DNA from: Patescibacteria group bacterium
GTDB lineage: Bacteria; Patescibacteriota; Microgenomatia; UBA12405
Direction of reading: 5' to 3'
Length of the DNA stretch: 64,000 nt
NCBI GenBank assembly: GCA_018902845.1
Contig: JAHIPV010000009.1
Span: 8,950 to 72,949, forward strand
Each line of letters starts with the position of its first letter. Position 1 is the stretch's first letter. The translations under genes were made by a program, and so were the position numbers. Of this stretch, positions 2,108 through 61,153 are shown piece by piece. The notes beneath the pieces were generated by a model that was not told the DNA's origin, did not search any database, and was given only the letters and a program-made list of their open reading frames with translations.

Positions 2108-3334
2108 GTGATGAAAAGGATTTTGATTTCTTGTACTTATTATGAACCAAATATTTCTGGAGTGACTGTATACGCCAGAATTTTGGCTGAAAAGATGGTT
2201 GGTGAAGGCTTTGACATAACCGTATTAAGTTCCAGATTTCAAAAAAACTTGGCAAAACAAAAAACAAAAAATGGAGTGAAAATAAAAAGATCTAGGGTAC
2301 TGTTTAGACTGAGCAAGGGTGTTTTTATGCCATTTTTCTGGCTGGATGCAATAAAAGAAGTTAAAAAAACGGATATTGTCAATTGTCATTTGCCACAAGT
2401 GGAATCTTTTATTTTGGCCATATTGGCAAAAATTTTTAAAAAAAGATTAATAGTAACGCATCATTGTGAATTTGGAATTGATGGGCTTTGGCACAATAAA
2501 ATAATCGGCTTAGTCACCTACCCTTTTCATTTTTTAACTTACTTATTAGCTGACAAAATCGTTTCTTATACAAAAGATTACGCTTATGTCTCAATTTTTT
2601 TGAGATTTTTTAAGAAAAAACTTATTTTTGTTTTACCACCGGCAGTGGTGGGAAAAGAAAATAAATTAAAAATCAAAGAGATCCTTCGGTCGCTAGAGCT
2701 TCCTTGGGATGACGGCGAGAGCGTCATTCTGAGCGGAAGCGAAGAATCCCAAATGAAATGCTTAACTCCCACGGGATCCCTCGACTTCGCTCGGGATGAC
2801 AGTGTCAAAATAATCGGATATGTGGGTAGAATTGGGTGGGAGAAAGGGCTAAATTTTTTGATTATGGCATGTAAAAAAATTAACGAAAAAAGAAAAGTCA
2901 AACTAGTATTGGTAGGGCCATATGAAAATGTGGCCGGAGATGGGAGTTATAAAAAATTAAGAGGATTAATCAAAAAAAATAAAGACTTGGTGGTTTTGCT
3001 TGGAGCAATAGACCATGAGGATTTGGCTAATTTTTATAAAACTTGTGATTGCTTGGTTTTGCCAAGCACTAATAATTTGGAAACTTTTGGGATTGTACAA
3101 ATTGAGGCGATGGTGTCGGGATGCGGTGTAGTGGCGTCTGATTTACCTGGGGTAAGAATGCCGGTTAAATTAACCGGAATGGGAAAAATTGCAAAAATTG
3201 GGGATAGCAATGATCTGGCAAAAAAAATAGAACAAGTTTTGGAGAGTAAGTACAGCAAAAAACAGATTAAAAAAGCTAGGGAGATTTTTAGTTCGGAAAG
3301 ATTTATTAAAGAATATAAAAAGATTTTCTGGTAA
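2108..3334 (+). CDS. Glycosyltransferase family 4 with a ~42-aa repeat-derived insert
   Basis: YVGRIGWEKG and LPSTNNLETFGIVQIEAM motifs. Confidence 0.9.
   Translation: MMKRILISCTYYEPNISGVTVYARILAEKMVGEGFDITVLSSRFQKNLAKQKTKNGVKIKRSRVLFRLSKGVFMPFFWLDAIKEVKKTDIVNCHLPQVESFILAILAKIFKKRLIVTHHCEFGIDGLWHNKIIGLVTYPFHFLTYLLADKIVSYTKDYAYVSIFLRFFKKKLIFVLPPAVVGKENKLKIKEILRSLELPWDDGESVILSGSEESQMKCLTPTGSLDFARDDSVKIIGYVGRIGWEKGLNFLIMACKKINEKRKVKLVLVGPYENVAGDGSYKKLRGLIKKNKDLVVLLGAIDHEDLANFYKTCDCLVLPSTNNLETFGIVQIEAMVSGCGVVASDLPGVRMPVKLTGMGKIAKIGDSNDLAKKIEQVLESKYSKKQIKKAREIFSSERFIKEYKKIFW
2677..2802. repeat. Composite GTCAT/ATGAC palindromic element, in frame in GT4
   Basis: gatccttcgg...gggatgac, cgtcattctgagcggaagcgaagaatc, gggatccctcgacttcgctcgggatgac. 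Confidence 0.9.
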
Positions 3335-3344
3335 AATTGAGTAT

Positions 3345-3551
3345 ATGTATGATTGGAGTACTGACACAACAAGGCTAATAAAGGATAAAGATGCGTGGGA
3401 GAAATGGAAATTAGAGCAAATGATTAATTTTGGTTTAAACGGCAAAAAACTCTCAAAATTAAAATTAAAAAAGTATTGGGATGAATTAGATATAGATCCT
3501 GATAAAAGAAATTATTTAAAGTTTTTGCTATGGGAAGATCCTAATTATTGA
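3345..3551 (+). CDS. Small hypothetical protein, possible orphan partner of a nucleotidyltransferase toxin
   Basis: 68-aa ORF preceded by TAAAAT; family assignment from recollection only. Confidence 0.55.
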   Translation: MYDWSTDTTRLIKDKDAWEKWKLEQMINFGLNGKKLSKLKLKKYWDELDIDPDKRNYLKFLLWEDPNY

Positions 3552-3576
3552 CTTTTGTTAATACTGAGTATATGAT
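3548..3576 (+). promoter_or_regulatory. Sigma70-type promoter of the AbrB-PIN cassette
   Basis: TTGACT-17nt-TATGAT, 6 nt before ATG 3583. Confidence 0.65.
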
Positions 3577-3582
3577 ATTAAT

Positions 3583-5029: not shown

Positions 5030-6936
5030 TTTTTCTTAAAAATTAAAACTTTGGGGTGGTCGTAGACGGTGAAGGCTTCTTCGGATGTGTCGTCGCGGAT
5101 GTAAATACCGGGGTATAGGCATTGGCTATCAATAGTAAACCATTTATTTGTTTTTTCTTTGTAAGGAAAATTGGTGGGGCCGAAATAATAACATTTTTTT
5201 AAAAATGGCAGGTTTATCCCTGGGTAAGAATTAATTTCTATTAATTTTGTAAAACTTAATTTTTCATCAAAGAGGTTTTGGTAAAATTTTGATGTTTGGG
5301 GATATTTGTTTGGTACTGGCGGGATGGAACCCCAAAGACGATTTGATGACATGATCATATAATCGGCATTATTTATAATTGGACTTAATCTTTGCCATTT
5401 TTCTGGTGTGTCTGGATCGTAAAGCGATAGCATTTGACCACTGTAACTGCTGGCAGTTTGTTTTGGTAAGTTTAATGGAAGAGGATCGTCCCAATATTCA
5501 TTTGTAATTAAGGATTCAATGGGAATATTTTTGTAAATCCAGTTTGATGCCTGAACGCGGGAATGAGGGCGGGAATAGATAGATAGAAAAGAAATGCAAA
5601 ATATAAAATGGAAAATAAAAGTAGTAAAAATGAATTTTAAATTAGAGGTTGGCTTGATAGCGAGCAAACATATAAATGGGTAGATTGGTAAAAAATAACG
5701 CATAGTAGTGACAAATTGAGAGCCCTGAAAAAAGAAAAGAAGGATAATCCAAGCCAACAAGAGAAAAACAATAGGATTGTGATTTTTTAAGATTTTGAGT
5801 TTTGTTCCAAAATCAGTGGTTATAAGATTCCTCGACTTCGCTCGGAATGACACGATTGTTTTGAGAGTGAAACTGATAATTTTAAAAAGTGAAATGAAAA
5901 ATAGGATTGATAGAGGTAAACCAATGCCCCAGAAAACAAGATTTTTTAGGGGGAAAAGAATGGGAGTTTTACTTAGCCATTGAACGGCTGGTGGAAACCA
6001 AGCATCTGGATCATTAAACGACTGAAGTGTTTTTAAATTGTCAATAAACTGAGGGTTGGGTTTGATAAGGGAAACAAAAGCGTATGGCTGAACAAGACGA
6101 AAAACAAGAAAAGTAGTTAGCAAAAAGTAAGATCCGAGAAAAATTAACTTGATTAAACGAATGATATTAAAAAAGTTTTTGGTTTTAAAAAAATAAAACA
6201 AAAAGAATAAAGCAATAACTGGAGAAAAAAGAAGAGCAGAAATTTTAGATGCCATGGCAAGACCAAAAAAAATTGGCGAGAGAAGTAAACTCCAGCTCTG
6301 CTGGAGACCTCGAACAAGTCGAGAGATCCCTCGACTACGCTCGGGATGACAGTTTCTTTTTGTTAGCCAGTGAGATAATAGTGTAAAAGTGGCGAAAATA
6401 AAGAAGTTTAAGAAAGTGTCAACGGCAAAAAAATGAGAGAGCTGAATTGGAAAAATACAGGTTGCGTAGAAAAGGCTGGGAAGAAAATATAATAACGGCC
6501 AGGTGTTTTTTGACTTGGGTGAGGTTTTGTTGCGACTGTATAATGGTTGTTTCTTGAAAATTAACTTTGAAATAAGATACAAGGAAAAAATGTTTAGGGA
6601 ATCAAAAAAAGCTGAAAGTGCGCGACCCAGAAAGTGAATTTTACCGTAAGAATCGAGATTTAGTATGGTGGCTAAATATTTTGTCAAAAAAATAGGAAAG
6701 GTGCCATAAACAAAAAACTGATATTCTTTATAGTTGTATGGATTTAGCGGAGAGATATTAGTATTTAGGTATTGTGTAAAGGAAATCGGAAGTTTTATTC
6801 TTTCGGTTACCATGGTCAAAAATCTTTCGTCTGGGTGGAGATGCTGATCGTTGTCCCAATTAATACCGTAAAGACGAAGAGACAAGGCAAAGAGGAAGAT
6901 AAGGATTAAAATTATTTTGTTTTTATGATTTTTCAT
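5026..6936 (-). CDS. GT-C (ArnT/PMT-like) membrane glycosyltransferase with repeat inserts
   Basis: HLHPDER, YGTFP and VYDHPKV motifs; many TM helices. Confidence 0.8.
   Translation of the reverse strand: MKNHKNKIILILIFLFALSLRLYGINWDNDQHLHPDERFLTMVTERIKLPISFTQYLNTNISPLNPYNYKEYQFFVYGTFPIFLTKYLATILNLDSYGKIHFLGRALSAFFDSLNIFSLYLISKLIFKKQPLYSRNKTSPKSKNTWPLLYFLPSLFYATCIFPIQLSHFFAVDTFLNFFIFATFTLLSHWLTKRNCHPERSRGISRLVRGLQQSWSLLLSPIFFGLAMASKISALLFSPVIALFFLFYFFKTKNFFNIIRLIKLIFLGSYFLLTTFLVFRLVQPYAFVSLIKPNPQFIDNLKTLQSFNDPDAWFPPAVQWLSKTPILFPLKNLVFWGIGLPLSILFFISLFKIISFTLKTIVSFRAKSRNLITTDFGTKLKILKNHNPIVFLLLAWIILLFFFQGSQFVTTMRYFLPIYPFICLLAIKPTSNLKFIFTTFIFHFIFCISFLSIYSRPHSRVQASNWIYKNIPIESLITNEYWDDPLPLNLPKQTASSYSGQMLSLYDPDTPEKWQRLSPIINNADYMIMSSNRLWGSIPPVPNKYPQTSKFYQNLFDEKLSFTKLIEINSYPGINLPFLKKCYYFGPTNFPYKEKTNKWFTIDSQCLYPGIYIRDDTSEEAFTVYDHPKVLIFKKK
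5825..5853. repeat. Solo palindromic element, in frame (VSFRAKSRNL)
   Basis: agattcctcgacttcgctcggaatgac. Confidence 0.9.
6304..6352. repeat. Solo palindromic element, in frame (CHPERSRGISRLVRGL)
   Basis: tcgaacaagtcgagagatccctcgactacgctcgggatgac; sibling at 53216. Confidence 0.9.
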
Positions 6937-8660
6937 AAAATTAAGTCTTCTATTTCTTCTTTTGATAAATAATTTTGTTTTTTGTAAATTCTTATAACAG
7001 GATGATCAAATACGGAAAAGGTTTCTTCGGCATTTTCATCTGATAAAAGGAACGGAAAAACTGAAAACTGTTTTAATTTTTCAAATCCCAGTTTACCAGA
7101 AAAAAGAGTTTGGTAATATTTCTGAGAGTATGGAAAAAGGGATCCTTCTCCCGCCACGGCGGGATCAGGATGACGACGGTATTGGTTTTTGAAGATACGG
7201 CGGGATGGTATAAGTATGTAATCACTCTGATGAATCTGTTCTACTAACAGTTTTGGTGAATCAGGATCGCTGTCCAAATTGTAAAAATCAAAATTGTGTA
7301 CGTCTAACTGATGCTGATTAACCGGTACGTTTATAACATTGCCGGCTTCAGAAAGAATTTTTGTATGAGGCAAGAGGTTATTTTTAAGCCAATCAGAGGC
7401 AGTTATGCGAATATCTGGTTTTAAATAAATTGAAAAAAATATAATTCCGGGTAATATTGAAAAAATGATTAATATTTTTGATAAAAATTTGTATTTTTTG
7501 ATCTGTTGAAAAAAAACGATTGATAAAAAAGGAAAAACAAAAAAAATCGGAGACATGAAACGAGACCATTTGGTGTAAAGAAAAGAATTGTAAAAAAAAT
7601 AGACAAGAGCAGGAATGAGAACGACTAGCCAGTTAATTAATGTGTCATCCCGCTTAGCGGGACGTGGTGATCTCGTAGGAAATGTAAAAGATGTGGTTGT
7701 AACTCCGGCGGGATTGCCACGTCGTAAAACTCCTCGCAATGACAGAATTGCTCCAATTATTGCAAATAGCAATACAGGCGGGCCGACGGCGTAGGGGAAA
7801 ATTTTGGTAAATTGAAAAAGAATTGGTGTGGAGTTTAAAAACTGGTTAGTGTAGAACATTTTAGTTTTTCCCATAGCAACAGAGGTTTCATAATTTAAGG
7901 TTGATCTAAAATCAGGTCCGGCAATAAGGTTGAATGGAGAAAAAATTATGAAAAATAGAGTGCTATTGAGTAAAAGAAAAGAAGTGAGAAGAAGTAGGTA
8001 ATTTTTTTTATTTTTTTTAAAAAAAGCAAAAAAAATAGACAAAAGCATTGGACCAAGAAAAAAAAGAGAAGTGATTTTTGAAGCCAAGCCAATACCGGTG
8101 ATAATCGAGGATAAAAATATACTTACCAGAGATTGATTTTGATAAAAATTGAGAGCCAAAAATATGTTTATGGCGAAAACGAAAATAAGCAAGGATTCGG
8201 TGGTACCAAAATGAGCTAATTGTATTAAGGCCGGTGTAAAAATTAAAAATAAAAGCAATAAAACACTTTGTTTAAATGAAAAAAATAATTTTTTGGAAAT
8301 TAAATAAAAAATGAAAACTGAAATTGAAGAAAAAAGAGATGAATAAAACCTCAGCATCAAAACAGAGTTAATAAAATTATTTGGTAGTTTTAATGAATAA
8401 AGAGTGAAAAAAGCCAGATAGAGAGGAAATTGACCATAAGCAAAAAAATGAGGGTTTAAGTCCGTTATTTTTAATTTTGATATAGCAGTGGCCATATTGT
8501 TTTCATCCGGATGAAAAAAATAAGAATCCGCCCAATCAAGTTTATAAAAACGAGTGAGGATAGTAAGAAAAAAGAGAAAAAAGATTAAAAATGTTTTTTT
8601 TGAGAAAAACGCTTCGCTAGATTTTTGGGGCTGTTTTTTAAATAACATAGATAATAGCAA
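6933..8660 (-). CDS. GT-C (ArnT/PMT-like) membrane glycosyltransferase with repeat inserts
   Basis: FHPDE, AYGQFP and VFDHP motifs; paralog of the neighbouring gene. Confidence 0.8.
   Translation of the reverse strand: MLLSMLFKKQPQKSSEAFFSKKTFLIFFLFFLTILTRFYKLDWADSYFFHPDENNMATAISKLKITDLNPHFFAYGQFPLYLAFFTLYSLKLPNNFINSVLMLRFYSSLFSSISVFIFYLISKKLFFSFKQSVLLLLFLIFTPALIQLAHFGTTESLLIFVFAINIFLALNFYQNQSLVSIFLSSIITGIGLASKITSLFFLGPMLLSIFFAFFKKNKKNYLLLLTSFLLLNSTLFFIIFSPFNLIAGPDFRSTLNYETSVAMGKTKMFYTNQFLNSTPILFQFTKIFPYAVGPPVLLFAIIGAILSLRGVLRRGNPAGVTTTSFTFPTRSPRPAKRDDTLINWLVVLIPALVYFFYNSFLYTKWSRFMSPIFFVFPFLSIVFFQQIKKYKFLSKILIIFSILPGIIFFSIYLKPDIRITASDWLKNNLLPHTKILSEAGNVINVPVNQHQLDVHNFDFYNLDSDPDSPKLLVEQIHQSDYILIPSRRIFKNQYRRHPDPAVAGEGSLFPYSQKYYQTLFSGKLGFEKLKQFSVFPFLLSDENAEETFSVFDHPVIRIYKKQNYLSKEEIEDLIL
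7139..7175. repeat. Solo palindromic element, in frame (RHPDPAVAGEGS)
   Basis: ggatccttctcccgccacggcgggatcaggatgacg. Confidence 0.9.
7642..7745. repeat. Paired palindromic element, in frame (SLRGVLRRGNP...PAKRDD)
   Basis: gtcatcccgcttagcggga...gggattgccacgtcgtaaaactcctcgcaatgac. Confidence 0.9.
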
Positions 8661-11946: not shown

Positions 11947-12005
11947 ACTAATAATAGTTTTTTAGATATTTTAATCTTAGATTAATATTTTTTTTAATGC
12001 AAATG

Positions 12006-18720: not shown

Positions 18721-18748
18721 GGGATCCTTCGTTATACTCAGGATGACG
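18721..18748. repeat. Solo palindromic element, intergenic
   Basis: gggatccttcgttatactcaggatgacg. Confidence 0.8.
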
Positions 18749-18777: not shown

Positions 18778-19596
18778 ATGATTGATACCCATGCACATTT
18801 GACTGGAATGTTTTGCGACCTGCCTACCGGCAGGCAAGCTGGGAAGGGAGTGGTGGAAGAGGCGAAAATGGCAAGATTGTGGGCTATTGTGTTGGCGGCT
18901 AGTAATATAGAAGAATCCGTGGAAAATATTAAATTGGCTAAAAATTATGACGGGTTTCTGTTTGCTGCTGCCGGTATTCACCCTCAGCAAACTGATGTTG
19001 AAAATAAAGATTCTATTGATAAACAAATAGCTCATTTAGATGAGTTAATAGGCAAAAACAAGAAAAATATAGTGGCTGTTGGTGAGTGCGGACTAGATTA
19101 CTCCCCTGCTCCGGCAGGTGAAAAAGACAGAAGTAGGAGAGGTCAGGAAAAATTGTTTAGAAAACAAATTTGTTTGAGTATGAAATATAAATTGCCTTTA
19201 ATTATTCATGCCAGAAAAGCAATGGACCAAGTTATTGAAATTTTGAGTGAATATAAAAATTTAAAGGGAGTTTTTCATTGTTATGCCGGAGGGAAAAAAA
19301 GGATTAAAAAGGTGTTAGGTTTGGGAGAAGATTGGTATTTTGGAATTGACGGGAACTTGACTTATGATGATGGACTAGTGGAAGTGGTTAAAAAAATACC
19401 AAGAGACAGGTTAATTCTAGAAACGGATTCCCCTCTTTTGACGCCTGAACCTTTTAGAGGAAAGGAAAACAAACCGGCGTATGTTAAGTATGTATATAAA
19501 AAGGTAAGTGAAATATGGGGGGTGGAATTTAAAGAATGCGAGAAATTAATAGACGAGAATGCCAGAAAAATGTTTGGGATTAATCCGTCATCCTGA
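18778..19596 (+). CDS. tatD: TatD-family hydrolase
   Basis: IDTHAHL, GIHP, VGECGLDY and LETDSP motifs. Confidence 0.95.
   Translation: MIDTHAHLTGMFCDLPTGRQAGKGVVEEAKMARLWAIVLAASNIEESVENIKLAKNYDGFLFAAAGIHPQQTDVENKDSIDKQIAHLDELIGKNKKNIVAVGECGLDYSPAPAGEKDRSRRGQEKLFRKQICLSMKYKLPLIIHARKAMDQVIEILSEYKNLKGVFHCYAGGKKRIKKVLGLGEDWYFGIDGNLTYDDGLVEVVKKIPRDRLILETDSPLLTPEPFRGKENKPAYVKYVYKKVSEIWGVEFKECEKLIDENARKMFGINPSS
18819..18838. repeat. Short palindrome CCTGCCTACCGGCAGGCAAG, in frame in TatD (LPTGRQ)
   Basis: GC-rich hairpin directly after the HAH motif. Confidence 0.7.
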
Positions 19597-19674
19597 ATGA
19601 AATGAAGGATCCCGTTGGAGTATAACTAATCTCTTTGGGATTCTTCTCCCGCCAAAGGCGGGATCAGAATGACG
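19586..19674. repeat. Paired palindromic element that supplies the TatD stop codon
   Basis: cgtcatccTGAatgaaatgaaggatcc...cagaatgacg. Confidence 0.9.
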
Positions 19675-19991: not shown

Positions 19992-20975
19992 TTATTTTTC
20001 CGCTAGTTGGCGGAGTGGTAATCCCGACGAGATCGCCACGTCACTTCGTTCCTCGCGATGACAGGTAGAATTTTGCCAGATTTTGAATACATTGGAAAGG
20101 AGCATGGCAATAGTCATGGGGCCGACACCACCAGGAACAGGGGTGATAAAACTGCAGTTATCTGCAACTGATTTAAAATCGACGTCTCCGACTAATTTGG
20201 AAGTTTGGGGATCTTTGTTTGTACCAACATCAATAACTATAGAATTATTTTTGACATAATCGGCAGTTATGAAATTTGGTTTACCGACAGCCGAAATTAA
20301 AATATCTGCTTTTTGGCAAATTTGAATTAAATTCTTTGTATGAGAATGACAAAGGGTGCAGGTGCAATTTTCTGCGTTTAACAGAGCCAAGAGTGGCAAA
20401 CCAACCTCTAAACTTCTTCCAATAATTACCGCATTTTTACCTGATAAAGAAATTTTATAATTTTTTAGGAGTCTGATAATTCCTAATGCCGTAGCCGGGA
20501 TGATGGCGATAGGATCTTGCTGGAATAATAATCCGAGATTAGTGGAGGTCAGACCGTCAGCGTCTTTGTTTGGATTGATTGAATTTAGAATCTCTAATTT
20601 ATTTAGATATTTTGGTAAAGGAAGCTGGACCATAATGGCGGTAATAGAGGGATCTTGATTGAGTTTTTTAATAAGTTTTATGAGATTCGCTTCGCTAGAT
20701 TCTTCACATTCATTCAGAATGACGGGCTGATTGTCGGAATTGATTTGGTTTGAAAAATTATGAACTTTGGTATTTATGCCTATTTGTTTGGCATTTTTTT
20801 GTTTCATTTCAACATATTTTTTGGAAGCTGGGTCAGAGCCGACTAAAATTATGTCAAGTTTAATATTCGTTTGTCCCCCTGCGGGTGACTGCGCTGACGT
20901 TTGCTTTTTTTTAATATCAGTTTTAAGGGTTTCTAGGATTTTTTGAGATAGTTTTTGACCGTCTAGGATTTGCAT
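19992..20975 (-). CDS. folD: Bifunctional methylenetetrahydrofolate dehydrogenase/cyclohydrolase
   Basis: VQLPLP, KDADG and ITPVPGGVGPMT motifs. Confidence 0.96.
   Translation of the reverse strand: MQILDGQKLSQKILETLKTDIKKKQTSAQSPAGGQTNIKLDIILVGSDPASKKYVEMKQKNAKQIGINTKVHNFSNQINSDNQPVILNECEESSEANLIKLIKKLNQDPSITAIMVQLPLPKYLNKLEILNSINPNKDADGLTSTNLGLLFQQDPIAIIPATALGIIRLLKNYKISLSGKNAVIIGRSLEVGLPLLALLNAENCTCTLCHSHTKNLIQICQKADILISAVGKPNFITADYVKNNSIVIDVGTNKDPQTSKLVGDVDFKSVADNCSFITPVPGGVGPMTIAMLLSNVFKIWQNSTCHREERSDVAISSGLPLRQLAEK
19999..20064. repeat. Palindromic element forming the FolD C-terminal tail
   Basis: Encodes CHREERSDVAISSGLPLRQLAE. Confidence 0.88.
20687..20724. repeat. Solo element, in frame in FolD (VILNECEESSEA)
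   Basis: cgcttcgctagattcttcacattcattcagaatgacg. Confidence 0.85.
20875..20896. repeat. Short hairpin repeat, in frame in FolD (SAQSPAGG)
   Basis: ccccctgcgggtgactgcgctg. Confidence 0.85.
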
Positions 20976-21012: not shown

Positions 21013-21167
21013 TTGTCATTCCGACTCCTTCGACTCCGCTCAGGATAAATTCCATGGAGGAATCTCTGAACTTGTTTCAGAAATCCCGCTGTGGCGGGAT
21101 ACCTCAGACAAGCTGAGAGATCCCTCGACTTCGCTCGGGATGACAAGTGCTTCGCTGGCAATGACAA
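21013..21167. repeat. Nested composite palindromic element, intergenic
   Basis: Shares a long internal segment with 44463-44572. Confidence 0.9.
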
Positions 21168-22820: not shown

Positions 22821-24535
22821 TTTAATTTTTTAATTAACTCTTCTGGGAAGAAGGGTCGACCGTTGAATTTTAAAATAGTGGCAGTTGGGCTGAAACTGAA
22901 AAGCGACTTGAGTAAAAACCCTAGCCGTGAAGTTTGACTGTTTTCTATGATAATAGTTTTTTTGTATTTTTTGATTGTTTTTTTTATAGAATCATGAAGA
23001 GGCCAAAGAGTTCTTATTTGTAAAAAGGCAAAATTGTCTAGTTTTTTTAGGGCCTCTAAAATAATACCCTTGTTAGAACCCCAGGAAATAATAAGGCTGT
23101 CGGCTTGTTTATTGCCAAAAAGTCTTGGTTTTGGAGCCAATATCTTGGCAGTTTTTAACTTTTTGGCCCTTTTTTGTTGCATTTTGACAGCAACAATTGA
23201 ATCATCAGATGAAAAACCGAATTGGTTATGCTCGGAACTATTGGCTAAAAACTGGCCATTAGTTGTACCCGGCAGGCAACGGGGAGATACTCCTGACCGC
23301 GTAATCCAATTGTAGCGTTTAAAATTTTTTGTAACTGAATTTAAAATTTTGCCACGATTTACTATGACTTTCTCTTTTGATAAATCTGTAGTTGAAGCAC
23401 TGGATTCGGCAATGAATTTGTCGCTTAAAACAATAATTGGCGTCTGTAATTGATCAGCAAGATTCAGTCCGATATTGGCAAAATCAAAACTTTCCTGCTG
23501 ATCGCCGGGAGCGATTACAACTTTAGGGAATTCACCGTGTCCGGAAAAAATAGCATAAAGCAGGTCAGATTGACTGGTCCAAGTCGGCATACCGGTAGCG
23601 GGACCGGGGCGAGAAACCAGATAATAAAGCATGCCGATTTCACTCATTCCGCAAAAGGAAACAGTTTCGTTCATCAAAGCAAAACCTCCACCGGAAGTAC
23701 CAACTGCTGATCTGGCGCCGGCAAAAGCGGCGCCTGCGCTTAAACTGGCGGTGGCTATTTCATCTTCTGGGTGAACAACCGTAATGTTGTAATCTTTGGC
23801 CCTAGAGGCTAAAAAGTGAAGTGTCCCGCTTGATGGGGTCATGGGGTAGGCGGCATAAAAATTTCCTTTACCTTGTAAAAACCCGTAAGCAAAAGCTTGG
23901 TTGCCATCATTAAAACTAGTTAATCTTCCCCCTGCGGATGACTGTGCTTTCGCTTGGTTCGCTTGTTTGGGGATTTTTAGGGTTTGTTGATATTGTTTCA
24001 AATTTTGCTGAGCGTAAATATAACCGATATCAAAAGCGATCAAATTAGTTTTTGTGTTTTTTGAAAAAACTTTTGAAATAAGTGATGTAGCCTGACTTTT
24101 GTCTTGATTTAGAAGAAAAGCTATGATTCCGAAACAAATAATATTAGCGGACAAAGGATTACCAGCTTGAGAAGAAAGTTGAGAAAGTGGCAAATTGATA
24201 AATTTGCCTTTTGAAACTGGATTTTTTTTGTCTGAAAATACAAGAGTGTTTGGGTGAAATTCGTTTTGATGCTGTCGGCAGTGGCCCGGTTTTAACGAGA
24301 AAAAGTAATCTATTTTTTGGTGGGGAGCGTGAACTTTTTGGTATCCGTAGGTGGCTTGATATGTGTTGTGTCCGCCACGAACAAGTGATGGATATTCTGT
24401 ATAATCATGAAAATAAAAACCTAAGGATTGGAAAAATTTTGAAAATAGTTGACCGCCTGATTTGATGCCCATACCTGCCGGACCGGCAAGTTTGATGGAA
24501 AAGTCTTCTTTTATCATTTTGTTTGATTTTAACAT
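22817..24535 (-). CDS. 2-oxoacid:ferredoxin oxidoreductase alpha subunit (gamma-alpha fusion)
   Basis: EYPSLVRGGH, YPMTP, TSGGGF and RPGPATG motifs. Confidence 0.93.
   Translation of the reverse strand: MLKSNKMIKEDFSIKLAGPAGMGIKSGGQLFSKFFQSLGFYFHDYTEYPSLVRGGHNTYQATYGYQKVHAPHQKIDYFFSLKPGHCRQHQNEFHPNTLVFSDKKNPVSKGKFINLPLSQLSSQAGNPLSANIICFGIIAFLLNQDKSQATSLISKVFSKNTKTNLIAFDIGYIYAQQNLKQYQQTLKIPKQANQAKAQSSAGGRLTSFNDGNQAFAYGFLQGKGNFYAAYPMTPSSGTLHFLASRAKDYNITVVHPEDEIATASLSAGAAFAGARSAVGTSGGGFALMNETVSFCGMSEIGMLYYLVSRPGPATGMPTWTSQSDLLYAIFSGHGEFPKVVIAPGDQQESFDFANIGLNLADQLQTPIIVLSDKFIAESSASTTDLSKEKVIVNRGKILNSVTKNFKRYNWITRSGVSPRCLPGTTNGQFLANSSEHNQFGFSSDDSIVAVKMQQKRAKKLKTAKILAPKPRLFGNKQADSLIISWGSNKGIILEALKKLDNFAFLQIRTLWPLHDSIKKTIKKYKKTIIIENSQTSRLGFLLKSLFSFSPTATILKFNGRPFFPEELIKKLK
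23928..23948. repeat. Short hairpin repeat, in frame (AQSSAGG)
   Basis: ccccctgcggatgactgtgc. Confidence 0.75.
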
Positions 24536-24551
24536 CCCAACGGAATTGTTT

Positions 24552-24658
24552 CGTCATTCTGAGCGGGAGCGAAGAATCCCAAAGTGAGTTTTGATTCCTA
24601 TGGGATCCTTCGGTCGTAAGACTTACTCAGGATGACGGGGGTGTATTCAGGATGACGG
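24552..24658. repeat. Paired palindromic element with a stuttered end, intergenic
   Basis: Spacer conserved with the copy at 30118. Confidence 0.9.
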
Positions 24659-29082: not shown

Positions 29083-29120
29083 CGGGATTGCTACGTCGTG
29101 AGATTCCTCGCAATGACAGC
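29083..29120. repeat. Solo palindromic element, intergenic
   Basis: gggattgctacgtcgtgagattcctcgcaatgac. Confidence 0.85.
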
Positions 29121-37990: not shown

Positions 37991-39540
37991 GGTGAATAGT
38001 TGACTGAAAAATCATAAAGAATGGGGGTGTTTTGGCCATCAATACTTTTTAAAAATGCCTTATATCTAAAATAGCGACCAATATTGGCACCTAAATAAAT
38101 CCCCTGCCCCTCTGAATCAGTATAAAGATCGTCGGAAAGATCAGTGCCGGCAGGACCATGATAAAGCCATGGACCATCTGCGTTTTCAGAGATAGCCGTT
38201 TGGAAACCGATCAAGGTATTTGGAAATGTTTGGCCAGAAAAACTGATTCTATTAAAAGCAGAAGATTGATTGGTATCCAAAACTGAAGAAATTAAGGTGC
38301 CTTCTGTAAAAAATCCTCCAACCCCGCCGGTTAAATCCATGGCATCAACATAAAAAATAAGAGTTGGGTCTGAATGATCCATTATTTTGGAAAAATATAT
38401 GGCTTCTAAATTATTTTCATAATCTTCCCCTATTTGTTCGTAATCTAAGCTGATTTCTGTCCAAGTTACAGGGGGTATAGTGATAGTCCTCTCGTCCCAT
38501 TGGCCATAAACAGCCGTAACATCTATTTCAATTTCATCTGGAGTGGGATTATAGGCATAAAAATGAAGATTGCGAAAACCGATGGTACAGATCTCATCAT
38601 AATTAAAAATTTTTACCCACGATCGCCATGAACCGGAACTGGGGGAATAAAGTTGGATTTTCATGGAATAACTTGATTCATTGTAAGTAAAATCGGCGGA
38701 GTTGGTGGATATAACACCATTAGAAAAAAATGTTAAAAATTTACACAAAAGCCATTCCCAAAAACCAAGTCCGCTACAATTGGTGCGCCAACCGTTTTGT
38801 AATTGGTCATCATAGATAAGAGATTCAGGTGAACCTCCCTGGCAACCTCCAAGAAGTTCTATTTCCCCGTTATTTATTGTGGGATCAGTGATTTTTACCA
38901 GATCCATTTGACCACCTTCGAAATCGGAAACCGTGCTTTGCTGCCAGGATAAATTATCGTAATAGCGAGTTAAATATTTACTTTGGGTAATTTGACTCGG
39001 ATGTAAACCTGTCCACGAACAGGTGGCTGCTATTTTTTTTGTTGACAAATCAAGGGTTCCGGAAGAATCAACAATGTCACCATTTTGATTGCGATAAACA
39101 GGACTAATGTCTATATAACGGGTAAAATTATCGACAAGCTCCCCGCTGGTAGTAGAGACAAGAGATAAAATTCCACCATCTTCATTAATAATGTAACGAC
39201 CGTTATTTAACAAATTCCAGTCAGCGTGTTGAATATTTTTTGTTTTTTCTAAATATTCAAGATTTAGAGCCGTGGCTTTGGTTTTTTCTTTACCAATCTC
39301 GGCAGTTTCTTGAGAGACAAAAAATAGTCTGGTGACGGCAAAAATAATTGTTGATAAAACTCCTATACATACAAGTATTTCTACTATTGAAAAAGCAAAT
39401 TGCTTGTCATTGCGAGGTAGTCTTTTAGTTCGTTTCAGAAATCCGCCTTTGGCGGATACTTCGCATTCGCGAGAGATCCCTCGACTTCGCTCGGGATGAC
39501 AGAATGGTTTGCTCGGGATGACACTAGTTTTATTTTTCAT
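37987..39540 (-). CDS. Large pilin-like protein with a repeat-expanded leader
   Basis: A|FSIVEILV prepilin motif after a 49-aa leader. Confidence 0.8.
   Translation of the reverse strand: MKNKTSVIPSKPFCHPERSRGISRECEVSAKGGFLKRTKRLPRNDKQFAFSIVEILVCIGVLSTIIFAVTRLFFVSQETAEIGKEKTKATALNLEYLEKTKNIQHADWNLLNNGRYIINEDGGILSLVSTTSGELVDNFTRYIDISPVYRNQNGDIVDSSGTLDLSTKKIAATCSWTGLHPSQITQSKYLTRYYDNLSWQQSTVSDFEGGQMDLVKITDPTINNGEIELLGGCQGGSPESLIYDDQLQNGWRTNCSGLGFWEWLLCKFLTFFSNGVISTNSADFTYNESSYSMKIQLYSPSSGSWRSWVKIFNYDEICTIGFRNLHFYAYNPTPDEIEIDVTAVYGQWDERTITIPPVTWTEISLDYEQIGEDYENNLEAIYFSKIMDHSDPTLIFYVDAMDLTGGVGGFFTEGTLISSVLDTNQSSAFNRISFSGQTFPNTLIGFQTAISENADGPWLYHGPAGTDLSDDLYTDSEGQGIYLGANIGRYFRYKAFLKSIDGQNTPILYDFSVNYSP
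39404..39524. repeat. Composite palindromic element inside the prepilin leader
   Basis: Encodes VIPSKPFCHPERSRGISRECEVSAKGGF...PRND. Confidence 0.9.
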
Positions 39541-40021: not shown

Positions 40022-40098
40022 CGTCATCCTGAATTTAATTCAGGATCCTTTCGAGATCAAAACTTCCCTTGGGATCCTTCACTGTGTTCAGGATGACG
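40022..40098. repeat. Paired palindromic element, intergenic
   Basis: cgtcatcctgaatttaattcaggatc...ttcaggatgacg. Confidence 0.9.
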
Positions 40099-44462: not shown

Positions 44463-44572
44463 TTGTCATTCCGACCGAAGTGGAGGAATCCCTGAATTTA
44501 TTTCAGAAATCCCGCCATAGGCGGGATACCTCAGACAAGCTGAGAGATCCTTCGGCTACGCTCAGGATGACG
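44463..44572. repeat. Paired composite element that supplies the stop codon of the receiver gene
   Basis: ORF 44562..44930 ends PSS* inside the element. Confidence 0.9.
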
Positions 44573-45112: not shown

Positions 45113-45176
45113 AAATCCGCCCTTGGCGGATATCTCGCATTCGCGAGAGATCCCTCCGCTACGGTCGGGATGACAA
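45113..45176. repeat. Solo composite palindromic element, intergenic
   Basis: Sibling of the 39430-39500 segment. Confidence 0.88.
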
Positions 45177-49838: not shown

Positions 49839-50106
49839 ACGCTTCGCTAGATCCTTCGATCGTAAAACTCACTCAGGATGACGAAATTTTGTCATTGCGA
49901 GGATCCGCTAGCTGGCGGAGACGTGGCAATCCCCGCCTGCAACGCTGTAGCAACTGCGGGCAGGCCGTTGGGATTTTGATCACGTTTTTTTACATTTCCG
50001 ACGGGATCACCACGTCACTTCGTTCCTCGTGATGACAGCGGCTTGTCATTGCTACGTCTACGGGCGACCGCAAGGGTCGCCCCTACAAAGGGTCGGCAAT
50101 GACAGC
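49839..50106. repeat. Large cluster of nested palindromic elements of several families
   Basis: Includes GTCAT pairs, cctgcaacgctgtagcaactgcgggcagg and gggcgaccgcaagggtcgcccctac. Confidence 0.92.
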
Positions 50107-51249
50107 TTAAAAAGGGGAAAGCCGGCGGAGGTCTTTGATTATTTTTGGTAAAACTTTGATTAAATAATTAATTTCTTTTTTGGTAGTCCAACGACCAAAA
50201 CTGATTCTTATTGATCCGTGAGTTTGAGAAGGTTTCAGTCCACAAGCAAGAAGGACGTGAGAAGGTTTTAAATTATTTGAAGAACAGGCAGAACCGGTTG
50301 AAACAGCGATTCCCAGCTGATCAAGTTTTAACAAAATTGATTCGCCTTCAACGTTATCGAAACGAAAACTGGCAATGTTTGGGAGAGAGAATTTGAGATG
50401 GCCATTAAGATGAGAATTGGGAATTTTTTTGAGAATATTTTTTATAAGATGATGGCGGAGTTTGAACAATCTTTGGGATTCTGAAACAAGTTCAGAATGA
50501 CGAATGGTTGCTGTTTTGGCAAAGGCCGAAACAAGAGGAAGATTTACAGTTGAAGACCTTAAGGTATTTTCGTGACCGCCACCGTGTAAAAGTGGGGTAA
50601 TATTGGTTCCTTTTTTGATATAAAGCAGGGCAATTCCTTTGGGGCCATAAACTTTGTGAGATGAAGCTGTCAAAAGATCAATATTCATTTTTTTTACATT
50701 TATGGGAATTTTGCCAAAAGTCTGAGAGGCGTCGGTGTGAAAATATATATTAAGTTTGCAACAAATTTTTCCAATTTCTTCTATAGGCTCTATGGTTCCA
50801 ATTTCGTTATTGGCGTGCATGATAGAAACTAAAATTGTCTTTTTGGTGATAGATTTTTTAACATCACTAGGATTAACCCGACCAAATTTATCAACGGGAA
50901 TTTTGGTAATTTTGAATCCTTGAGTTTTTAGCCAATCGGCTGAGTTTAAAATACAGTCATGTTCGATAGAAGAAATGATGATGTGATTGCCTTTGTTTTT
51001 GTTGGCAAAAGCAATGCCCTTTAGAACAGTATTATTTGACTCGGTGGCCGAAGAAGTAAAAATTATCTCCGATGGGTCTGCTTTAATAAATTTGGCTATA
51101 TTTTTGCGATTTTTTTCTAAGATTTTTTTGGCTTTTTGACCAGATTGGTGCAAAGAAGAAGTGTTGGCAAAGTTGGAAAAATATGAAGAAAGGTGTTTTA
51201 TGATAATTGGATCAATTGGGGTGGTGGAAGCGTAATCTAAGTAAATCAT
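50107..51249 (-). CDS. iscS: Cysteine desulfurase
   Basis: YLDYASTTP, SSHKVYGPKG and STGSACSS motifs. Confidence 0.95.
   Translation of the reverse strand: MIYLDYASTTPIDPIIIKHLSSYFSNFANTSSLHQSGQKAKKILEKNRKNIAKFIKADPSEIIFTSSATESNNTVLKGIAFANKNKGNHIIISSIEHDCILNSADWLKTQGFKITKIPVDKFGRVNPSDVKKSITKKTILVSIMHANNEIGTIEPIEEIGKICCKLNIYFHTDASQTFGKIPINVKKMNIDLLTASSHKVYGPKGIALLYIKKGTNITPLLHGGGHENTLRSSTVNLPLVSAFAKTATIRHSELVSESQRLFKLRHHLIKNILKKIPNSHLNGHLKFSLPNIASFRFDNVEGESILLKLDQLGIAVSTGSACSSNNLKPSHVLLACGLKPSQTHGSIRISFGRWTTKKEINYLIKVLPKIIKDLRRLSPF
50475..50502. repeat. Solo element, in frame in IscS (RHSELVSES)
   Basis: gggattctgaaacaagttcagaatgacg. Confidence 0.85.
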
Positions 51250-51696: not shown

Positions 51697-53178
51697 TTAT
51701 TCTGAAAAAAGTTGGACGGTGTAGATAAAGATTTCTGTTTTAGGATCAAGATAACAGTCTGAGCGCAGACCCATTTTTTGAGAGCAAAGCTGGGAGAGAA
51801 ATTCTTTTTTTGTCCAGCCGGTTTCTGTGGCCACTTGGGGCAAAAAAGTACCGGTACAATTGACATACTTTAGATAAACTCCGTGTTTGCCCATTTTAAT
51901 CTGCTTAATAGAATTAATTTTTTTTAGAGGTGAGAGAATAGAAATTTCTATTTTTATATCTTTTAGCTCTTGTTTTGTTAACGGAGGAAAACGAGGATCA
52001 TGAAAAGCCGAAGCTATGGTCGTTTTGGCTATTGTAGGCAGGAGTGTTCGATTAGCGACAAAACTGCCTATACAGCCTCTTAGTTGGCCATGTTTTTTTA
52101 GAGTAATAAAGATTCCTCTTTTTTTGGAACGTAATAAATTCTTCGAATTTAAACGTTCCTTTGGGGTTTTCCCTGTTTTTGTATAAGTTTCCAGGACTTG
52201 GCGGGAGTAATTTAAAAGAAATTTTTGTTCTTGAGAGGAGAGTTCGTGGGATTTATGTTCCGATGGGATTGCCGCGTCGTTGCGGGCGACCGCAAGGGTC
52301 GCCCCTACAGAAGACTGACTACTGCTCTTGTAAAAAGCGATAGAGGCGTAGCCGACTACCCTGTTTCCGTCCCCTGTTATTTTTCCGGAATTAGTGAGAT
52401 GCAGTAATTTACTTTTATTTATTTTTAAATTCTTGGCTACCAGTAAAGCAACCTCTATAGGTTGGCTGGCACAGGCGAAAGTATCAACATTTGGATAAGT
52501 TTGTTTTAGTTGAGAGAGTGTGTTTACGAATCGTTTGTGTTTAAGAGTCAGAATTGCATCAGTGGTTTTTTTGTCTACAATTTGGGCGGTTTTTTGTTTA
52601 GGATAATGAGAAAGATCGGAGGAAATAATTAAGAGGGTATTGTTGTTCAAATTGTCTGAAATTTTTTGAGCTAGTAATTTAAGATCTTTTTGGCTGGCTT
52701 GGCCGATTAGGATGGGAATGATTTGGAAATTTTTTAATACTTCTTGCAAAAAAGGTAGTTGAACTTCCAAAGAATGTTCTTGTTGATGGGCTTGTTTATC
52801 AACAAAAATGTTTTTGTCTGTAAGCTTGGCAATAAAATTTTTGCTGATTTTGATTTTGCCTAGTGGCGTTTGCCAAAAATCACTGTCATCTATGGCAATT
52901 CCTCTGAAAAAAGCTGAATGACTAACACCTAGAAGAACAATGTGCTTAAAATTATAGTTTTCGATTTGACGAAAGGCATGAGCCGCCACTTGGCCGGAAT
53001 AATCATAGCCGGCGTGAGGGACTATAAGAATTTTGGGGGGCTTCCCCCTCCGGGTGACTGCGCCAAGGCTTGTGTTTTTGATATTAACTTTATTTAAAAA
53101 TTTTTGAATAGTGGAAGAAAGTTTTTTGGCCGAATTGGGATAAAACTGGCCGGCAACAACAGGCTGACGAATTAGCAT
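51697..53178 (-). CDS. AmmeMemoRadiSam protein B (MEMO1-like) fused to protein A (AMMECR1)
   Basis: AGQFYP, PHAGY, EHSLEVQLPFLQ, SSDLSHY and LRGCIG motifs. Confidence 0.93.
   Translation of the reverse strand: MLIRQPVVAGQFYPNSAKKLSSTIQKFLNKVNIKNTSLGAVTRRGKPPKILIVPHAGYDYSGQVAAHAFRQIENYNFKHIVLLGVSHSAFFRGIAIDDSDFWQTPLGKIKISKNFIAKLTDKNIFVDKQAHQQEHSLEVQLPFLQEVLKNFQIIPILIGQASQKDLKLLAQKISDNLNNNTLLIISSDLSHYPKQKTAQIVDKKTTDAILTLKHKRFVNTLSQLKQTYPNVDTFACASQPIEVALLVAKNLKINKSKLLHLTNSGKITGDGNRVVGYASIAFYKSSSQSSVGATLAVARNDAAIPSEHKSHELSSQEQKFLLNYSRQVLETYTKTGKTPKERLNSKNLLRSKKRGIFITLKKHGQLRGCIGSFVANRTLLPTIAKTTIASAFHDPRFPPLTKQELKDIKIEISILSPLKKINSIKQIKMGKHGVYLKYVNCTGTFLPQVATETGWTKKEFLSQLCSQKMGLRSDCYLDPKTEIFIYTVQLFSE
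52264..52310. repeat. GTAG-type REP-like hairpin, in frame in the domain linker (VGATLAVAR)
   Basis: Hairpin identical to the copy at about 50061-50086. Confidence 0.88.
53043..53063. repeat. Short hairpin repeat, in frame (GAVTRRG)
   Basis: ccccctccgggtgactgcgc. Confidence 0.8.
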
Positions 53179-53215: not shown

Positions 53216-53260
53216 TCTCGAACAAGTCGAGAGATCCCTCCGCTTCGGTCGGGATGACAA
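53216..53260. repeat. Solo element in a divergent intergenic region
   Basis: tcgaacaagtcgagagatccctccgcttcggtcgggatgac. Confidence 0.88.
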
Positions 53261-53280
53261 TAATATCTGTATTAAAAAAA

Positions 53281-54330
53281 ATGAAAAAAGCAAAGACATT
53301 GTACAAAAAATTAGATAAGAATACGGTGCAGTGCAGGGCTTGCAATTGGTATTGCAAGATTAAAGAAGGAAATGTGGGGATATGTGGAGTAAGGCAAAAC
53401 AATAGTGGAGAGTTGTGTTTGTTGGTGGATGGAAAAATAATTAGCTTAGCGGTAGATCCGATTGAAAAAAAGCCTTTGTTTCATTTTTTGCCGGCAAGTA
53501 AAACTTTATCTTTTGGAACTTTGGGGTGTAATTTTGGTTGCGCTTTTTGCCAGAATTGGCAACAATCGCAAGGAATAAAGGGGAAATTATGGTTGCTTTT
53601 AAATTATTCAGAGGTCAGGAGATCCCTCGACTTCGCTCGGGATGACAAGACTCCTAAAGAGATTGTAGAAAAAGCCGAGAAATTGGGGTGTGAGTCAATT
53701 GCTTATACCTACAACGAGCCAACGATTTTTGTTGAATATGCTTATGAAACGATGAAGCTGGCAAAAAAGGCGGGTATAAAAAATGTATGGGTGTCTAATG
53801 GATTCATGTCAGATGAGAGTTTTGAGCTAATAAAAGATTTGATTGACGGCATTAATATTGATTTAAAAAGTATAAATAGTGACTTTTATAGAAAAATTTG
53901 TAAAGGAAAATTAGAACCGGTTTTGAAAAATATTAAGAAATTTTATAAGGCTGGAATTTGGATAGAGTTGACTACTATGATAATTGCCGGCGAAAACGAC
54001 TCCCCTGCTGAGTTAAAAAAAATTGCTGAGTTTATTGCTAATCTTTCTTGCGACATTCCTTGGCACGTAACCGCTTTTCATCCTGATTATAAAATGATGG
54101 ACAAAGAAGCTACTAGCTTGGAAAAATTGGAAGAGGCATGGCAAATTGGTAAAAAATCTGGCTTAAAGTATATTTATACCGGCAATGTTTGGGGTGGAAA
54201 AAATTCAACATATTGTGTGGAATGTGGAAATTTGCTAATAGATAGGGGGGATTATGGATCAGGAAAAGTTTTGGGGTTGGCAGATGGAAAATGTGAAGAG
54301 TGTGGCCAGAAAATTAGTGGAGCGTGGTAG
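53281..54330 (+). CDS. amrS: AmmeMemoRadiSam radical SAM enzyme
   Basis: DPIEKKPLFHF, CNFGCAFCQNW and AYTYNEP motifs; start moved to ATG 53281. Confidence 0.93.
   Translation: MKKAKTLYKKLDKNTVQCRACNWYCKIKEGNVGICGVRQNNSGELCLLVDGKIISLAVDPIEKKPLFHFLPASKTLSFGTLGCNFGCAFCQNWQQSQGIKGKLWLLLNYSEVRRSLDFARDDKTPKEIVEKAEKLGCESIAYTYNEPTIFVEYAYETMKLAKKAGIKNVWVSNGFMSDESFELIKDLIDGINIDLKSINSDFYRKICKGKLEPVLKNIKKFYKAGIWIELTTMIIAGENDSPAELKKIAEFIANLSCDIPWHVTAFHPDYKMMDKEATSLEKLEEAWQIGKKSGLKYIYTGNVWGGKNSTYCVECGNLLIDRGDYGSGKVLGLADGKCEECGQKISGAW
53608..53649. repeat. Solo element, in frame (SEVRRSLDFARDD)
   Basis: tcagaggtcaggagatccctcgacttcgctcgggatgac. Confidence 0.9.
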
Positions 54331-55137: not shown

Positions 55138-55183
55138 CGCTTCGCTAGATCCTTCGTCCGATCAATCGGACTCAGGATGACAA
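55138..55183. repeat. Solo palindromic element, intergenic
   Basis: cgcttcgctagatccttcgtccgatcaatcggactcaggatgac. Confidence 0.88.
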
Positions 55184-59166: not shown

Positions 59167-59887
59167 GTGTAATAAAACTGGCGGTTTTTAATTTATAATC
59201 ACGGCTCTCGACTAGTCCGTCTGTAATTTTTATTATTCTTTTGGCAAAGGCAGCAATGTCATCTTCGTGTGTAATTACAACAACAGTACTGCCTTTTTTG
59301 TTTAATTGAACAAGAAATTTCATAACTTCATGAGCCGTCTTTGTATCTAAATTACCTGTTGGCTCATCGGCCAAGATTATGGATGGATTCATGGTTAAGG
59401 CTCTGGCTATAGCTACTCTTTGTATTTGTCCTCCTGATATATGATTGGATAAATTGGAAGCCTTGTCTGCTAGACCTACAATTTTTAGCACTTCCATAGC
59501 TCTTTTTTTTCTTTTTTCTTCCGGGTATCCGGCATAAAGCATGGGCCTTTCTACATTTTTTAATACTGTAGTTCTGGGCAGGAGGTTATAAGATTGAAAA
59601 ATGAAACCTATTTGTTTGTTTCTAATTTCAGCTAATTCGTCAGGGTTATAATGAGAAATATTTTTTCCATTTAAAAAGTATTTTCCTGAAGTTGGAGAAT
59701 CAAGAGCTCCCATCAAATTCATAATGGTTGATTTGCCCGAGCCTGAGTGTCCGATGATAGCCACAAATTCCCCTTTGTTGATTTTTATATCTATTCCTTT
59801 TAATGCCTGATATTTAACTGGTCCGGTTATATAAGTTTTTGTTATTTGTTCAAACTTAATGATTGGATTGTTTTTGTTTTTTTTCAT
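59159..59887 (-). CDS. ABC ATP-binding protein (LolD/MacB type)
   Basis: GHSGSGKST and ADEPTGNLD motifs. Confidence 0.95.
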   Translation of the reverse strand: MKKNKNNPIIKFEQITKTYITGPVKYQALKGIDIKINKGEFVAIIGHSGSGKSTIMNLMGALDSPTSGKYFLNGKNISHYNPDELAEIRNKQIGFIFQSYNLLPRTTVLKNVERPMLYAGYPEEKRKKRAMEVLKIVGLADKASNLSNHISGGQIQRVAIARALTMNPSIILADEPTGNLDTKTAHEVMKFLVQLNKKGSTVVVITHEDDIAAFAKRIIKITDGLVESRDYKLKTASFITHD

Positions 59888-61077
59888 CTCATTCCGCCCA
59901 TGGGCAATATCCCTCCGCTACTGCCGGAGTCTTGGGATGAATCAGTTGTTTGGCTTGTAATTATTTCATCTCCCTCGGATATGCCTTTTAGTATTTCTGT
60001 TTTGCTATCACCCACTATGCCTATTTCAACGGGTATATATAACAATTCTCCGCTTTTTTTGTCCAAAACTTGGACGGCTTTTTCACCTTGATAAGTTTTT
60101 ATAGCGCTATTGGTGACAGCCAGAACATCTTGGGCACTTTTTGTTTCTATATCAATCTGAACCGTCATACCAGCTTTTATATTTTCTTCAACTTGGCCCA
60201 AATTTACATAAATATTATAGGTAATAATACCCGATGTGTCAGTGCCAATATCGTCAACTCTGTCAACTATGCCTTCAATTTCGGATCCCTTTAAGGCGTC
60301 AACAATGACAGTGGCTTTTTGGCCGGCTTGAATATCGCTTATGTCACTTTCAGATACTGCTAGTTTTGCCCAAGAATCAGAGTTGTTTTTTATCATTAGG
60401 GCTATGGTTTCAGGGTTAACTTCCTGTCCGGCTGAAAGAGCTAAATTAGCTATTGTTCCGCTTATTGGCGATTTTATTATTCCGCTGGTTACCTCCTGAT
60501 AGCTTAGCCAAGCTGCGCTTAGGGCCACTTGGGCTTTTTTTATAACTTGCTGTTGATTAAGATAATTGGCTTCTGCGGCCAGCCAATCGGCATGTTGTTG
60601 AATGTAAGTGGGATCATTTTCCAATAAATCACGAGCAACGGCATCGTTTATAAATTTTTGGTTGGCTGAAAAAGAATTTGATTGAAGTGTATATTGAGCA
60701 GACTTGGCTGATTCCAGAGTATTTTTGGCTCCCAGGTAAGACGAATAAGCCGTGCTTTTTTCGGCTTGACTAGCGGTACTTTTTACTTTGAACAATGATT
60801 GTCCGCTTTTTACCATGTCTTGATTTTTTACATATACTTCTTCCACCACACCGGTGATAGTTGAGTTGATATCCGCTTTACCGCTGGTTAAAATTTCACC
60901 AGTTTCAGACACTAGGCTAACTACATTGCCTTTTTTAACTTTTTCAGTTTTGTAAGTTACCGCTTCTTTTTTGCTACCTAAGGTTTTGCTTAGCAAAATT
61001 GCTATTAACACTAAGCCGATTAGCAGTAATATTTTGTTTCTTTTTGATAGCTTTTTGAATTTTTCAATTATTTTCAT
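59884..61077 (-). CDS. MacA-like membrane fusion protein
   Basis: IKSPISGTI lipoyl-like motif; operon context. Confidence 0.88.
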   Translation of the reverse strand: MKIIEKFKKLSKRNKILLLIGLVLIAILLSKTLGSKKEAVTYKTEKVKKGNVVSLVSETGEILTSGKADINSTITGVVEEVYVKNQDMVKSGQSLFKVKSTASQAEKSTAYSSYLGAKNTLESAKSAQYTLQSNSFSANQKFINDAVARDLLENDPTYIQQHADWLAAEANYLNQQQVIKKAQVALSAAWLSYQEVTSGIIKSPISGTIANLALSAGQEVNPETIALMIKNNSDSWAKLAVSESDISDIQAGQKATVIVDALKGSEIEGIVDRVDDIGTDTSGIITYNIYVNLGQVEENIKAGMTVQIDIETKSAQDVLAVTNSAIKTYQGEKAVQVLDKKSGELLYIPVEIGIVGDSKTEILKGISEGDEIITSQTTDSSQDSGSSGGILPMGGMR

Positions 61078-61105
61078 GTTTGATTTTGAGACTGTTAAGA
61101 TACGG

Positions 61106-61153
61106 CGCTTTGCGCCTAGATTCTTCCCCCGCCATGGCGGGGTCAGAATGACG
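61106..61153. repeat. Solo palindromic element, intergenic
   Basis: agattcttcccccgccatggcggggtcagaatgacg. Confidence 0.88.

Follow-up and report, generated by a model that had tools for sequence, protein, structure and literature searches.

Chromosome-strand polarity of CGTC-type hairpin repeats in a Patescibacteria genome

We analyzed a 64,000-nucleotide stretch (the window) of a Patescibacteria group bacterium (GenBank assembly GCA_018902845.1, contig JAHIPV010000009.1, positions 8,950 to 72,949) together with the genome that holds it, G000 (1.06 Mb in 24 contigs, C1 to C24, with genes called by a codon model of our own), in which short hairpin repeats within and between genes follow the chromosome strand. 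The term arm is used here for a single CGTC-type hairpin, solo for an unpaired arm and dimer for two arms with their tags outside; G-strand and C-strand genes are those on the G-rich and C-rich chromosome strands. Each arm carries a [CT]GTC tag unpaired at one end of an AT-first stem, and ATGAC is followed by A or G in all 38 dimers and in 97% of 97 solos. Searched strictly for hairpins, the window returned 33 arms, compared with one in total in 30 order-3 Markov copies. On the + strand, 26 of these are ATGAC-last and 7 GTCAT-first, and all 20 arms outside strict dimers are ATGAC-last. The 16 positions at which a first-pass annotation had reported unpaired arms ending in ...ATGAC on the + strand are all ends of GAT...ATGAC arms, and GTCAT-first arms occur, as it had stated, only as left partners of dimers (7/7, the partner of 49891 being an imperfect arm at 49998-50036). 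Three arms that look unpaired (7712, 21119, and 39475) have degenerate left partners (7644, 21015, and 39406). Both GTAG hairpins are co-oriented, ending in CTAC on the + strand, and the four CCCCCTGCGGGTGACTGCGC copies also share one orientation, only two of them being exact and the others variants (Table 1).

The same polarity was observed across G000, where 130/142 unpaired or tandem arms read ...ATGAC on the G-rich strand (p=3e-26) and, leaving aside 41 mixed loci, 118/134 loci were in the favored orientation (one solo is counted twice, as C5 and C10 overlap); the claim that all solos share one orientation is therefore strongly, but not absolutely, true of the genome. About one third of the arms are intragenic, and all 53 of these follow the chromosome strand (38/38 in C-strand and 15/15 in G-strand genes; Fisher p=1.6e-13), as do 14 of the 17 arms between co-directional G-strand genes. 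Orientation is thus independent of gene strand, as first proposed, and transcription is excluded because the rule holds in genes of either direction. GTAG-type repetitive extragenic palindromic sequences (REPs) are found 45:1 in the same polarity, the sole exception lying inside a RAYT-like gene, so that the CGTC and GTAG families both put their enzyme-recognized face on the C-rich strand. A third family, CCCCCTGCGG, is polarized 21:0, but 20 of its 21 copies lie in C-strand genes, making gene strand and chromosome strand inseparable. In the favored orientation, C outnumbers G on the C-poor strand (1284 C, 1078 G), which is the opposite of a decay artifact and leaves composition no explanation for the polarity. 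In addition, GC skew at third codon positions is +0.44 for G-strand and -0.40 for C-strand genes, indicating that the skew is independent of genes. Repeats become denser as local skew increases (rho 0.40, 95 bins); they were rejected as a local cause of the skew, since its profile does not change with distance on either side of the nearest solo. No strict arms lie on the weak-skew contigs C8, C13, and C22, consistent with bin contamination or with DNA acquired recently.

Judged by sequence, the main repeats are CGTC-type REPs, a superfamily described by Di Nocera et al. 2013 (PMC3733652), or Ssn-related motifs (SRM). As described by Chenal et al. 2025 (PMC11893778), the NTS/SRM motif is the target of the GIY-YIG nuclease SsnA, which cleaves only single-stranded DNA (ssDNA), only on the tag-first (CGTC-first) strand and a few bases upstream of the tag, and which in Neisseria restricts transforming ssDNA. 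An IS200/IS605 HUH transposase, initially named as the agent, is accordingly not retained for the main repeat, and the HUH link stands for the GTAG family only. G000 contains 38 simple tags-outside dimers and 108 solos; folded as DNA, one single arm was weak (z +0.5 and +0.9) and one dimer strong (z -4.2 and -4.5). Among 10 GIY-YIG matches in G000, two small ones are flanked by arms on both sides, and their predicted products resemble the Ssn type (cd10448), a single-domain GIY-YIG protein of ~95 residues encoded beside the motif, with 53% identity to a motif-flanked Wolbachia homologue. At 61/79 such loci of relatives, an arm lies no more than 300 bp away. A further five small GIY-YIG genes adjoin tRNA genes (C3:37981, C3:43380, C15:70808, C16:19643, and C21:81277), and near some of them there are short GC-rich hairpins and partial copies resembling tRNA. 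The only Y1 match in G000 is the RAYT-like gene, which has GTAG REPs inside and beside it; TnpA-REP is described as requiring the GTAG-first strand (PMC3333891). No IS200/IS605 element with its own tnpA/tnpB between asymmetric ends and no PF07282 match were found in G000. Hairpin modules also nest (window 50045-50103 and many other sites), GTAG REPs and a TCCAGAGGCGGAC hairpin lying inside CGTC arms, all co-oriented, suggesting that arms act as insertion hot spots. Elsewhere in the window (9575-13337), three adjacent - strand open reading frames (ORFs) with long Thr-Pro repeat linkers form the largest direct-repeat families.

Table 1. Repeats of the window and candidate enzyme genes on contigs C14 and C20 of G000. 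For window arms, strand - means that the tag-first face lies on the - strand (the arm reads ...ATGAC on +).
Feature	Coordinates	Strand
Imperfect CGTC/SRM arm adjoining a dimer	2678..2713	-
Dimer, in frame in glycosyltransferase gene (2111-3334 +)	2723..2800	
Solo arm in ORF 5026-6936 (-)	5826..5851	-
Solo arm in ORF 5026-6936 (-)	6325..6350	-
Solo arm in PMT-type glycosyltransferase gene (6933-8648 -)	7141..7174	-
Dimer, left arm degenerate	7644..7743	
Solo arm, intergenic, upstream of tatD	18723..18747	-
Dimer at tatD end	19587..19673	
Solo arm in folD C-terminal extension	20031..20062	-
Solo arm in folD; net 15-residue in-frame insertion vs relatives	20698..20723	-
Dimer with degenerate left arm and half-arm echo	21015..21165	
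Dimer with half-arm echo	24553..24656	
Solo arm	29086..29117	-
Arm adjoining a dimer	30075..30107	-
Dimer with half-arm echo	30119..30219	
Solo arm in + strand methyltransferase gene (32597-33835)	32922..32947	-
Solo arm in same + strand methyltransferase gene (32597-33835)	33574..33607	-
Dimer with degenerate left arm and echo, in ORF 37987-39540 (-)	39406..39522	
Dimer	40023..40097	
Dimer	44465..44571	
Solo arm	45149..45174	-
Arm adjoining a dimer	49850..49882	-
Dimer, right arm imperfect	49891..50036	
GTAG REP (GTAG-first face on -), nested in split CGTC arm	50062..50086	-
Solo arm in cysteine desulfurase gene (50107-51249 -)	50477..50501	-
GTAG REP within ORF 51697-53178 (-)	52284..52308	-
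Solo arm at start of + strand radical SAM gene	53233..53258	-
Solo arm within + strand radical SAM gene (53254-54330)	53621..53646	-
Solo arm	55148..55181	-
Solo arm	61119..61152	-
Third repeat family (CCCCCTGCGG...), exact copy	148..167	+
Third repeat family, exact copy; 10-residue in-frame insertion in FolD	20875..20894	+
Third repeat family, variant	23928..23947	+
Third repeat family, variant	53044..53063	+
ssnA-like gene; PF01541 over cut-off, arms on both sides	C14:19006-19227	
ssnA-like gene; PF01541 over cut-off, arms on both sides	C20:98043-98258	
RAYT-like gene; PF01797 over cut-off, NF047646 71.4 bits (below cut-off 80)	C20:65-583	

In relatives and controls, stretches were picked around pattern matches with orientation ignored. 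Partial samples of eight genera of the same family, all with strong skew, gave 14:1, 9:2, 26:0, 6:1, 16:4, 4:1, 15:5, and 8:2 (sum, 98:16) in favor of the same polarity. In contrast, the complete and bidirectional Nitrospirales chromosome G346 gave 63:69 over 132 loci (Fisher p=9e-13 versus G000), after 34/261 rows (non-hairpins or duplicates) had been dropped by eye, along with all 34 rows of one further listing, and with loci tallied by hand and skew switches placed at about 0.75 and 1.8 Mb. For weak-skew members of the same class, the ratios were 8:7 (G180), 3:4 (G166, by local skew, with 7 loci too small a count), 17:18 (G053, a weak control with short contigs and little skew), and 13:6 (G054). 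Solo polarity thus characterizes the single-skew family, not the repeat generally. Generic lagging-strand insertion, the explanation first offered, fails in that bidirectional-skew genomes (G346 and G180) show no solo polarity, and the G346 result indicates that ordinary lagging-strand targeting is insufficient. Within the family, arms are scarce in G025 (16 pattern matches per Mb), although its skew is just as strong. In G011, an arm (C13:10053-10085) lies between the two halves of a ligA adenylation-domain match, in one open frame.

No clear skew flip was detected on any contig of G000 examined contig by contig, 92/95 10-kb bins keeping their own contig's sign, nor in G025 (a single 998-kb contig), where 20/20 20-kb samples covering 40% of the sequence had one sign, leaving 60% in which a short second replichore could lie. 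The switch of repeat orientation at origin and terminus that was predicted from replication coupling was accordingly not seen, as the sequence examined in this family offered no skew flip. One-direction GC skew with rRNA genes on the C-rich strand has been described for three Microgenomates genomes (“Ca. Chazhemtobacterium,” Collierbacteria, and Beckwithbacteria) by Kadnikov et al. 2020 (PMC7143001). One-sign skew with core genes on the C-rich strand was also found in the G025 samples and the G000 contigs, and we infer that G000 belongs with these genomes. The C-rich strand of G000 carries 64% of the coding length, including what we take, from their motifs, to be the ribosomal-protein genes, rpoBC, dnaA, gyrB, and groEL. 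An oriC-like locus follows dnaA in both genomes (G000 C23:7019-7350; G025 C1:167331-167770), where one strand carries almost every DnaA box and where trio-like repeats recall the basal unwinding system described in PMC8287927; the skew is equal on both sides of this locus. In G000, an extra 465-residue ORF lies between this locus and dnaN. No convincing dif or parS site was found in G000 by motif, and FtsK-orienting polar sequences were unskewed (30:23). The polymerase domain of DNA polymerase I (PF00476) was not found in 24/25 genomes of the order, weak-skew families included; LigA, DnaB, DnaG, and DnaE are present in G000. This result may bear on Okazaki-fragment maturation.

The solos themselves carry traces of how they arose. 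Their tag end is precise and their inner end ragged, and a remnant of the dimer spacer is kept in 46/97 solos versus 10/1000 random sites, so they likely represent one-sided halves of dimers. No target-site duplication was seen in 28/38 dimers, the other 10 having short matches. In FolD, the solo at 20698-20723 is a net insertion compared with the eight relatives, out of nine, whose alignment covers the site, and where solos lie in essential genes they are cleanly inserted in frame, with host loss not evident. Opposite window positions 24536-24668, contigs of a related organism (two runs) carry an arm of another subtype, truncated on its left and oriented alike. At the solo at 33574-33607, 128 letters of the window correspond to 44 different ones in a related organism, and a related organism also lacks a 522-nucleotide block (28651-29172) that holds the solo at 29086 and, as read from its translation, a small nucleotidyltransferase-like ORF. 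Duplications of the tag half were on the G-rich strand in 23/23 listed family cases (~20 loci) and on both strands in other genomes; with about one quarter of arms on the other strand (54/218), 23/23 corresponds to roughly p=0.003 (calculated by hand). Taken together, the spacer remnants, the net insertion in FolD, and the one-strand duplications at tag ends favor gain, more than loss, as the polar process. Across many phyla (L043-L105), the tag half is repeatedly found duplicated in tandem at these motifs, often over 18 to 24 nucleotides, and it is possible that such duplications are a general footprint of Ssn activity.

We consider it about an even chance (probability of roughly 0.5) that SsnA-like and RAYT-like ssDNA nucleases copy these repeats from the one strand exposed by a predicted single-direction fork, giving polar solos. 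The predicted enzymes would act on ssDNA exposed on one strand along the chromosome, a cut just outside the tag would release a piece that is precise at its tag end and ragged at its inner end, and this piece would be captured or re-copied at fork-associated ssDNA. Under the IS200/IS605 rule of insertion into the lagging-strand template (as cited in PMC3333891 and PMC3971601), an active face on the C-rich strand would make that strand the lagging template, with the sequence of the leading strand. We lean slightly toward such an inverted GC skew, with a C-rich leading sequence and co-directional core genes, which would agree with the placement of the ribosomal-protein genes, rpoBC, dnaA, gyrB, and groEL and of most coding length on the C-rich strand. 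A fuller version, with a single fork from a canonical DnaA origin, a C-rich leading strand, and SsnA as mobilizer of CGTC REPs there alongside RAYT, seems doubtful. Of the initial proposal that insertion is coupled to replication and not to transcription, independence from transcription is upheld and the polarity tracks a gene-independent skew; coupling to replication is inferred only.

Several observations weigh against the copying mechanism. Echo asymmetry within dimers is weak in G000 (6/49 versus 1/49, p=0.11; 9/62 versus 1/62, p=0.017, when relatives are included), and a fixed SsnA cut offset at echo junctions had no support, with gaps of 0 to 34 letters. SsnA is not known to insert DNA. 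As to strand choice, capture at Okazaki junctions, as in oligonucleotide recombineering, would give the same pattern with standard skew; moreover, 28/41 tRNA genes, dnaB, recA, and dnaX lie on the G-rich strand. The tnpB gene was uninformative as a leading-strand marker (8/104 family genomes matched), its orientation being mixed: of the seven copies whose flanks could be used, the sense direction was G-rich in four and flat or C-rich in three. A lean toward the polarity of the family is also seen in G054, which belongs to the same order and has weak skew; moreover, the relatives do not count as independent samples, and the size of some controls is small. At an ordinary fork, too, one strand is exposed in each replichore, yet the controls are unpolarized, so more than direction must be unusual here. 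One-direction replication itself is, in the account of PMC7143001, a hypothesis from skew alone.

The polarity could instead reflect loss, with dimers inserting without bias and the cleavable face on the exposed strand (G-rich under standard skew) being cut and deleted or selected against, so that the only surviving solos have their active face on the protected C-rich strand. Dimer-spacer remnants in solos and the decayed left arms of some dimers fit such a purge, the full dimer, one long hairpin burying both tags (z ~ -4), could be protected from it, and the usual G-rich leading strand would be retained. Nevertheless, it is unlikely, because the tag-end duplications are gains and occur on one strand only in the family, clean in-frame solos in essential genes would need two in-frame steps, and a head-on orientation would follow for the ribosomal-protein genes, rpoBC, dnaA, and gyrB alike. 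Slightly less probable still is another strand-asymmetric process setting both skew and polarity, for instance transformation or transfer with one incoming strand destroyed. The restriction of transforming ssDNA by SsnA described in Neisseria (PMC11893778), a gene cluster of the window that reads as pilus-like from its translations, and the rise of repeat density with local skew all point that way; however, the last would also fit time since acquisition, the skew is flat around solos, and G025 is as strongly skewed with few arms. An artifact of transcription, reading-frame constraint, or base composition might be suspected from the bias of coding length to the C-rich strand and from the gene-bound CCCCCTGCGG family, but all arms in G-strand genes and most of those between them follow the chromosome strand and the excess of C runs opposite to decay, leaving this explanation very improbable. 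Gain by one-strand copying remains our preferred account.

The components of this system are already known. In the accounts given by PMC3733652 and PMC11893778, CGTC REPs and Ssn motifs share with the arms the [CT]GTC tag, the AT-first stem, the tags-outside dimers, motif-flanked ssn genes, and some intragenic copies; unlike those accounts, in which neither strand nor replication polarity appears in the portions consulted (“lagging” occurs 0 times in that of PMC11893778), solos here outnumber dimers, about one third of all arms are intragenic, and orientation goes by chromosome strand. GTAG hairpins with a Y1 gene, an asymmetric active strand, and a skew-related bias likewise recall REP/BIME-RAYT (BIME, bacterial interspersed mosaic element) and IS200/IS605 systems as described in PMC3333891 and PMC3971601. 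The bias reported there concerns whole insertion sequence elements and is significant in about one third of chromosomes, whereas here it concerns solo REPs, is apparently genome-wide, and is shared by an unrelated GIY-YIG-linked family. The genomes of PMC7143001 resemble G000 in having one C-rich strand along the chromosome that carries core translation genes; that description is of composition alone, to which repeat polarity and a flip-free oriC-like site are added here as markers. Rickettsia palindromic elements, as described in PMC3733652, are also in-frame hairpin inserts in housekeeping genes, with no chromosome-wide orientation in that description. Genome-wide polarity of these repeats and a link to single-direction skew were not found in searches of open-access PMC and bioRxiv main texts.

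CGTC REPs are said to be without a dedicated transposase, and polar, tag-precise, one-sided copies would be a footprint of their spread, bearing both on how these repeats are mobilized and on the role of Ssn outside Neisseria. Moreover, two independent targets of ssDNA enzymes pointing in the same direction show that the difference between the two strands extends from composition to their treatment by enzymes. The polarity yields testable predictions of fork direction in uncultured cells, and, if a single fork and SsnA as mobilizer were true, hairpin repeats would be a fossil compass for fork direction in uncultured bacteria.

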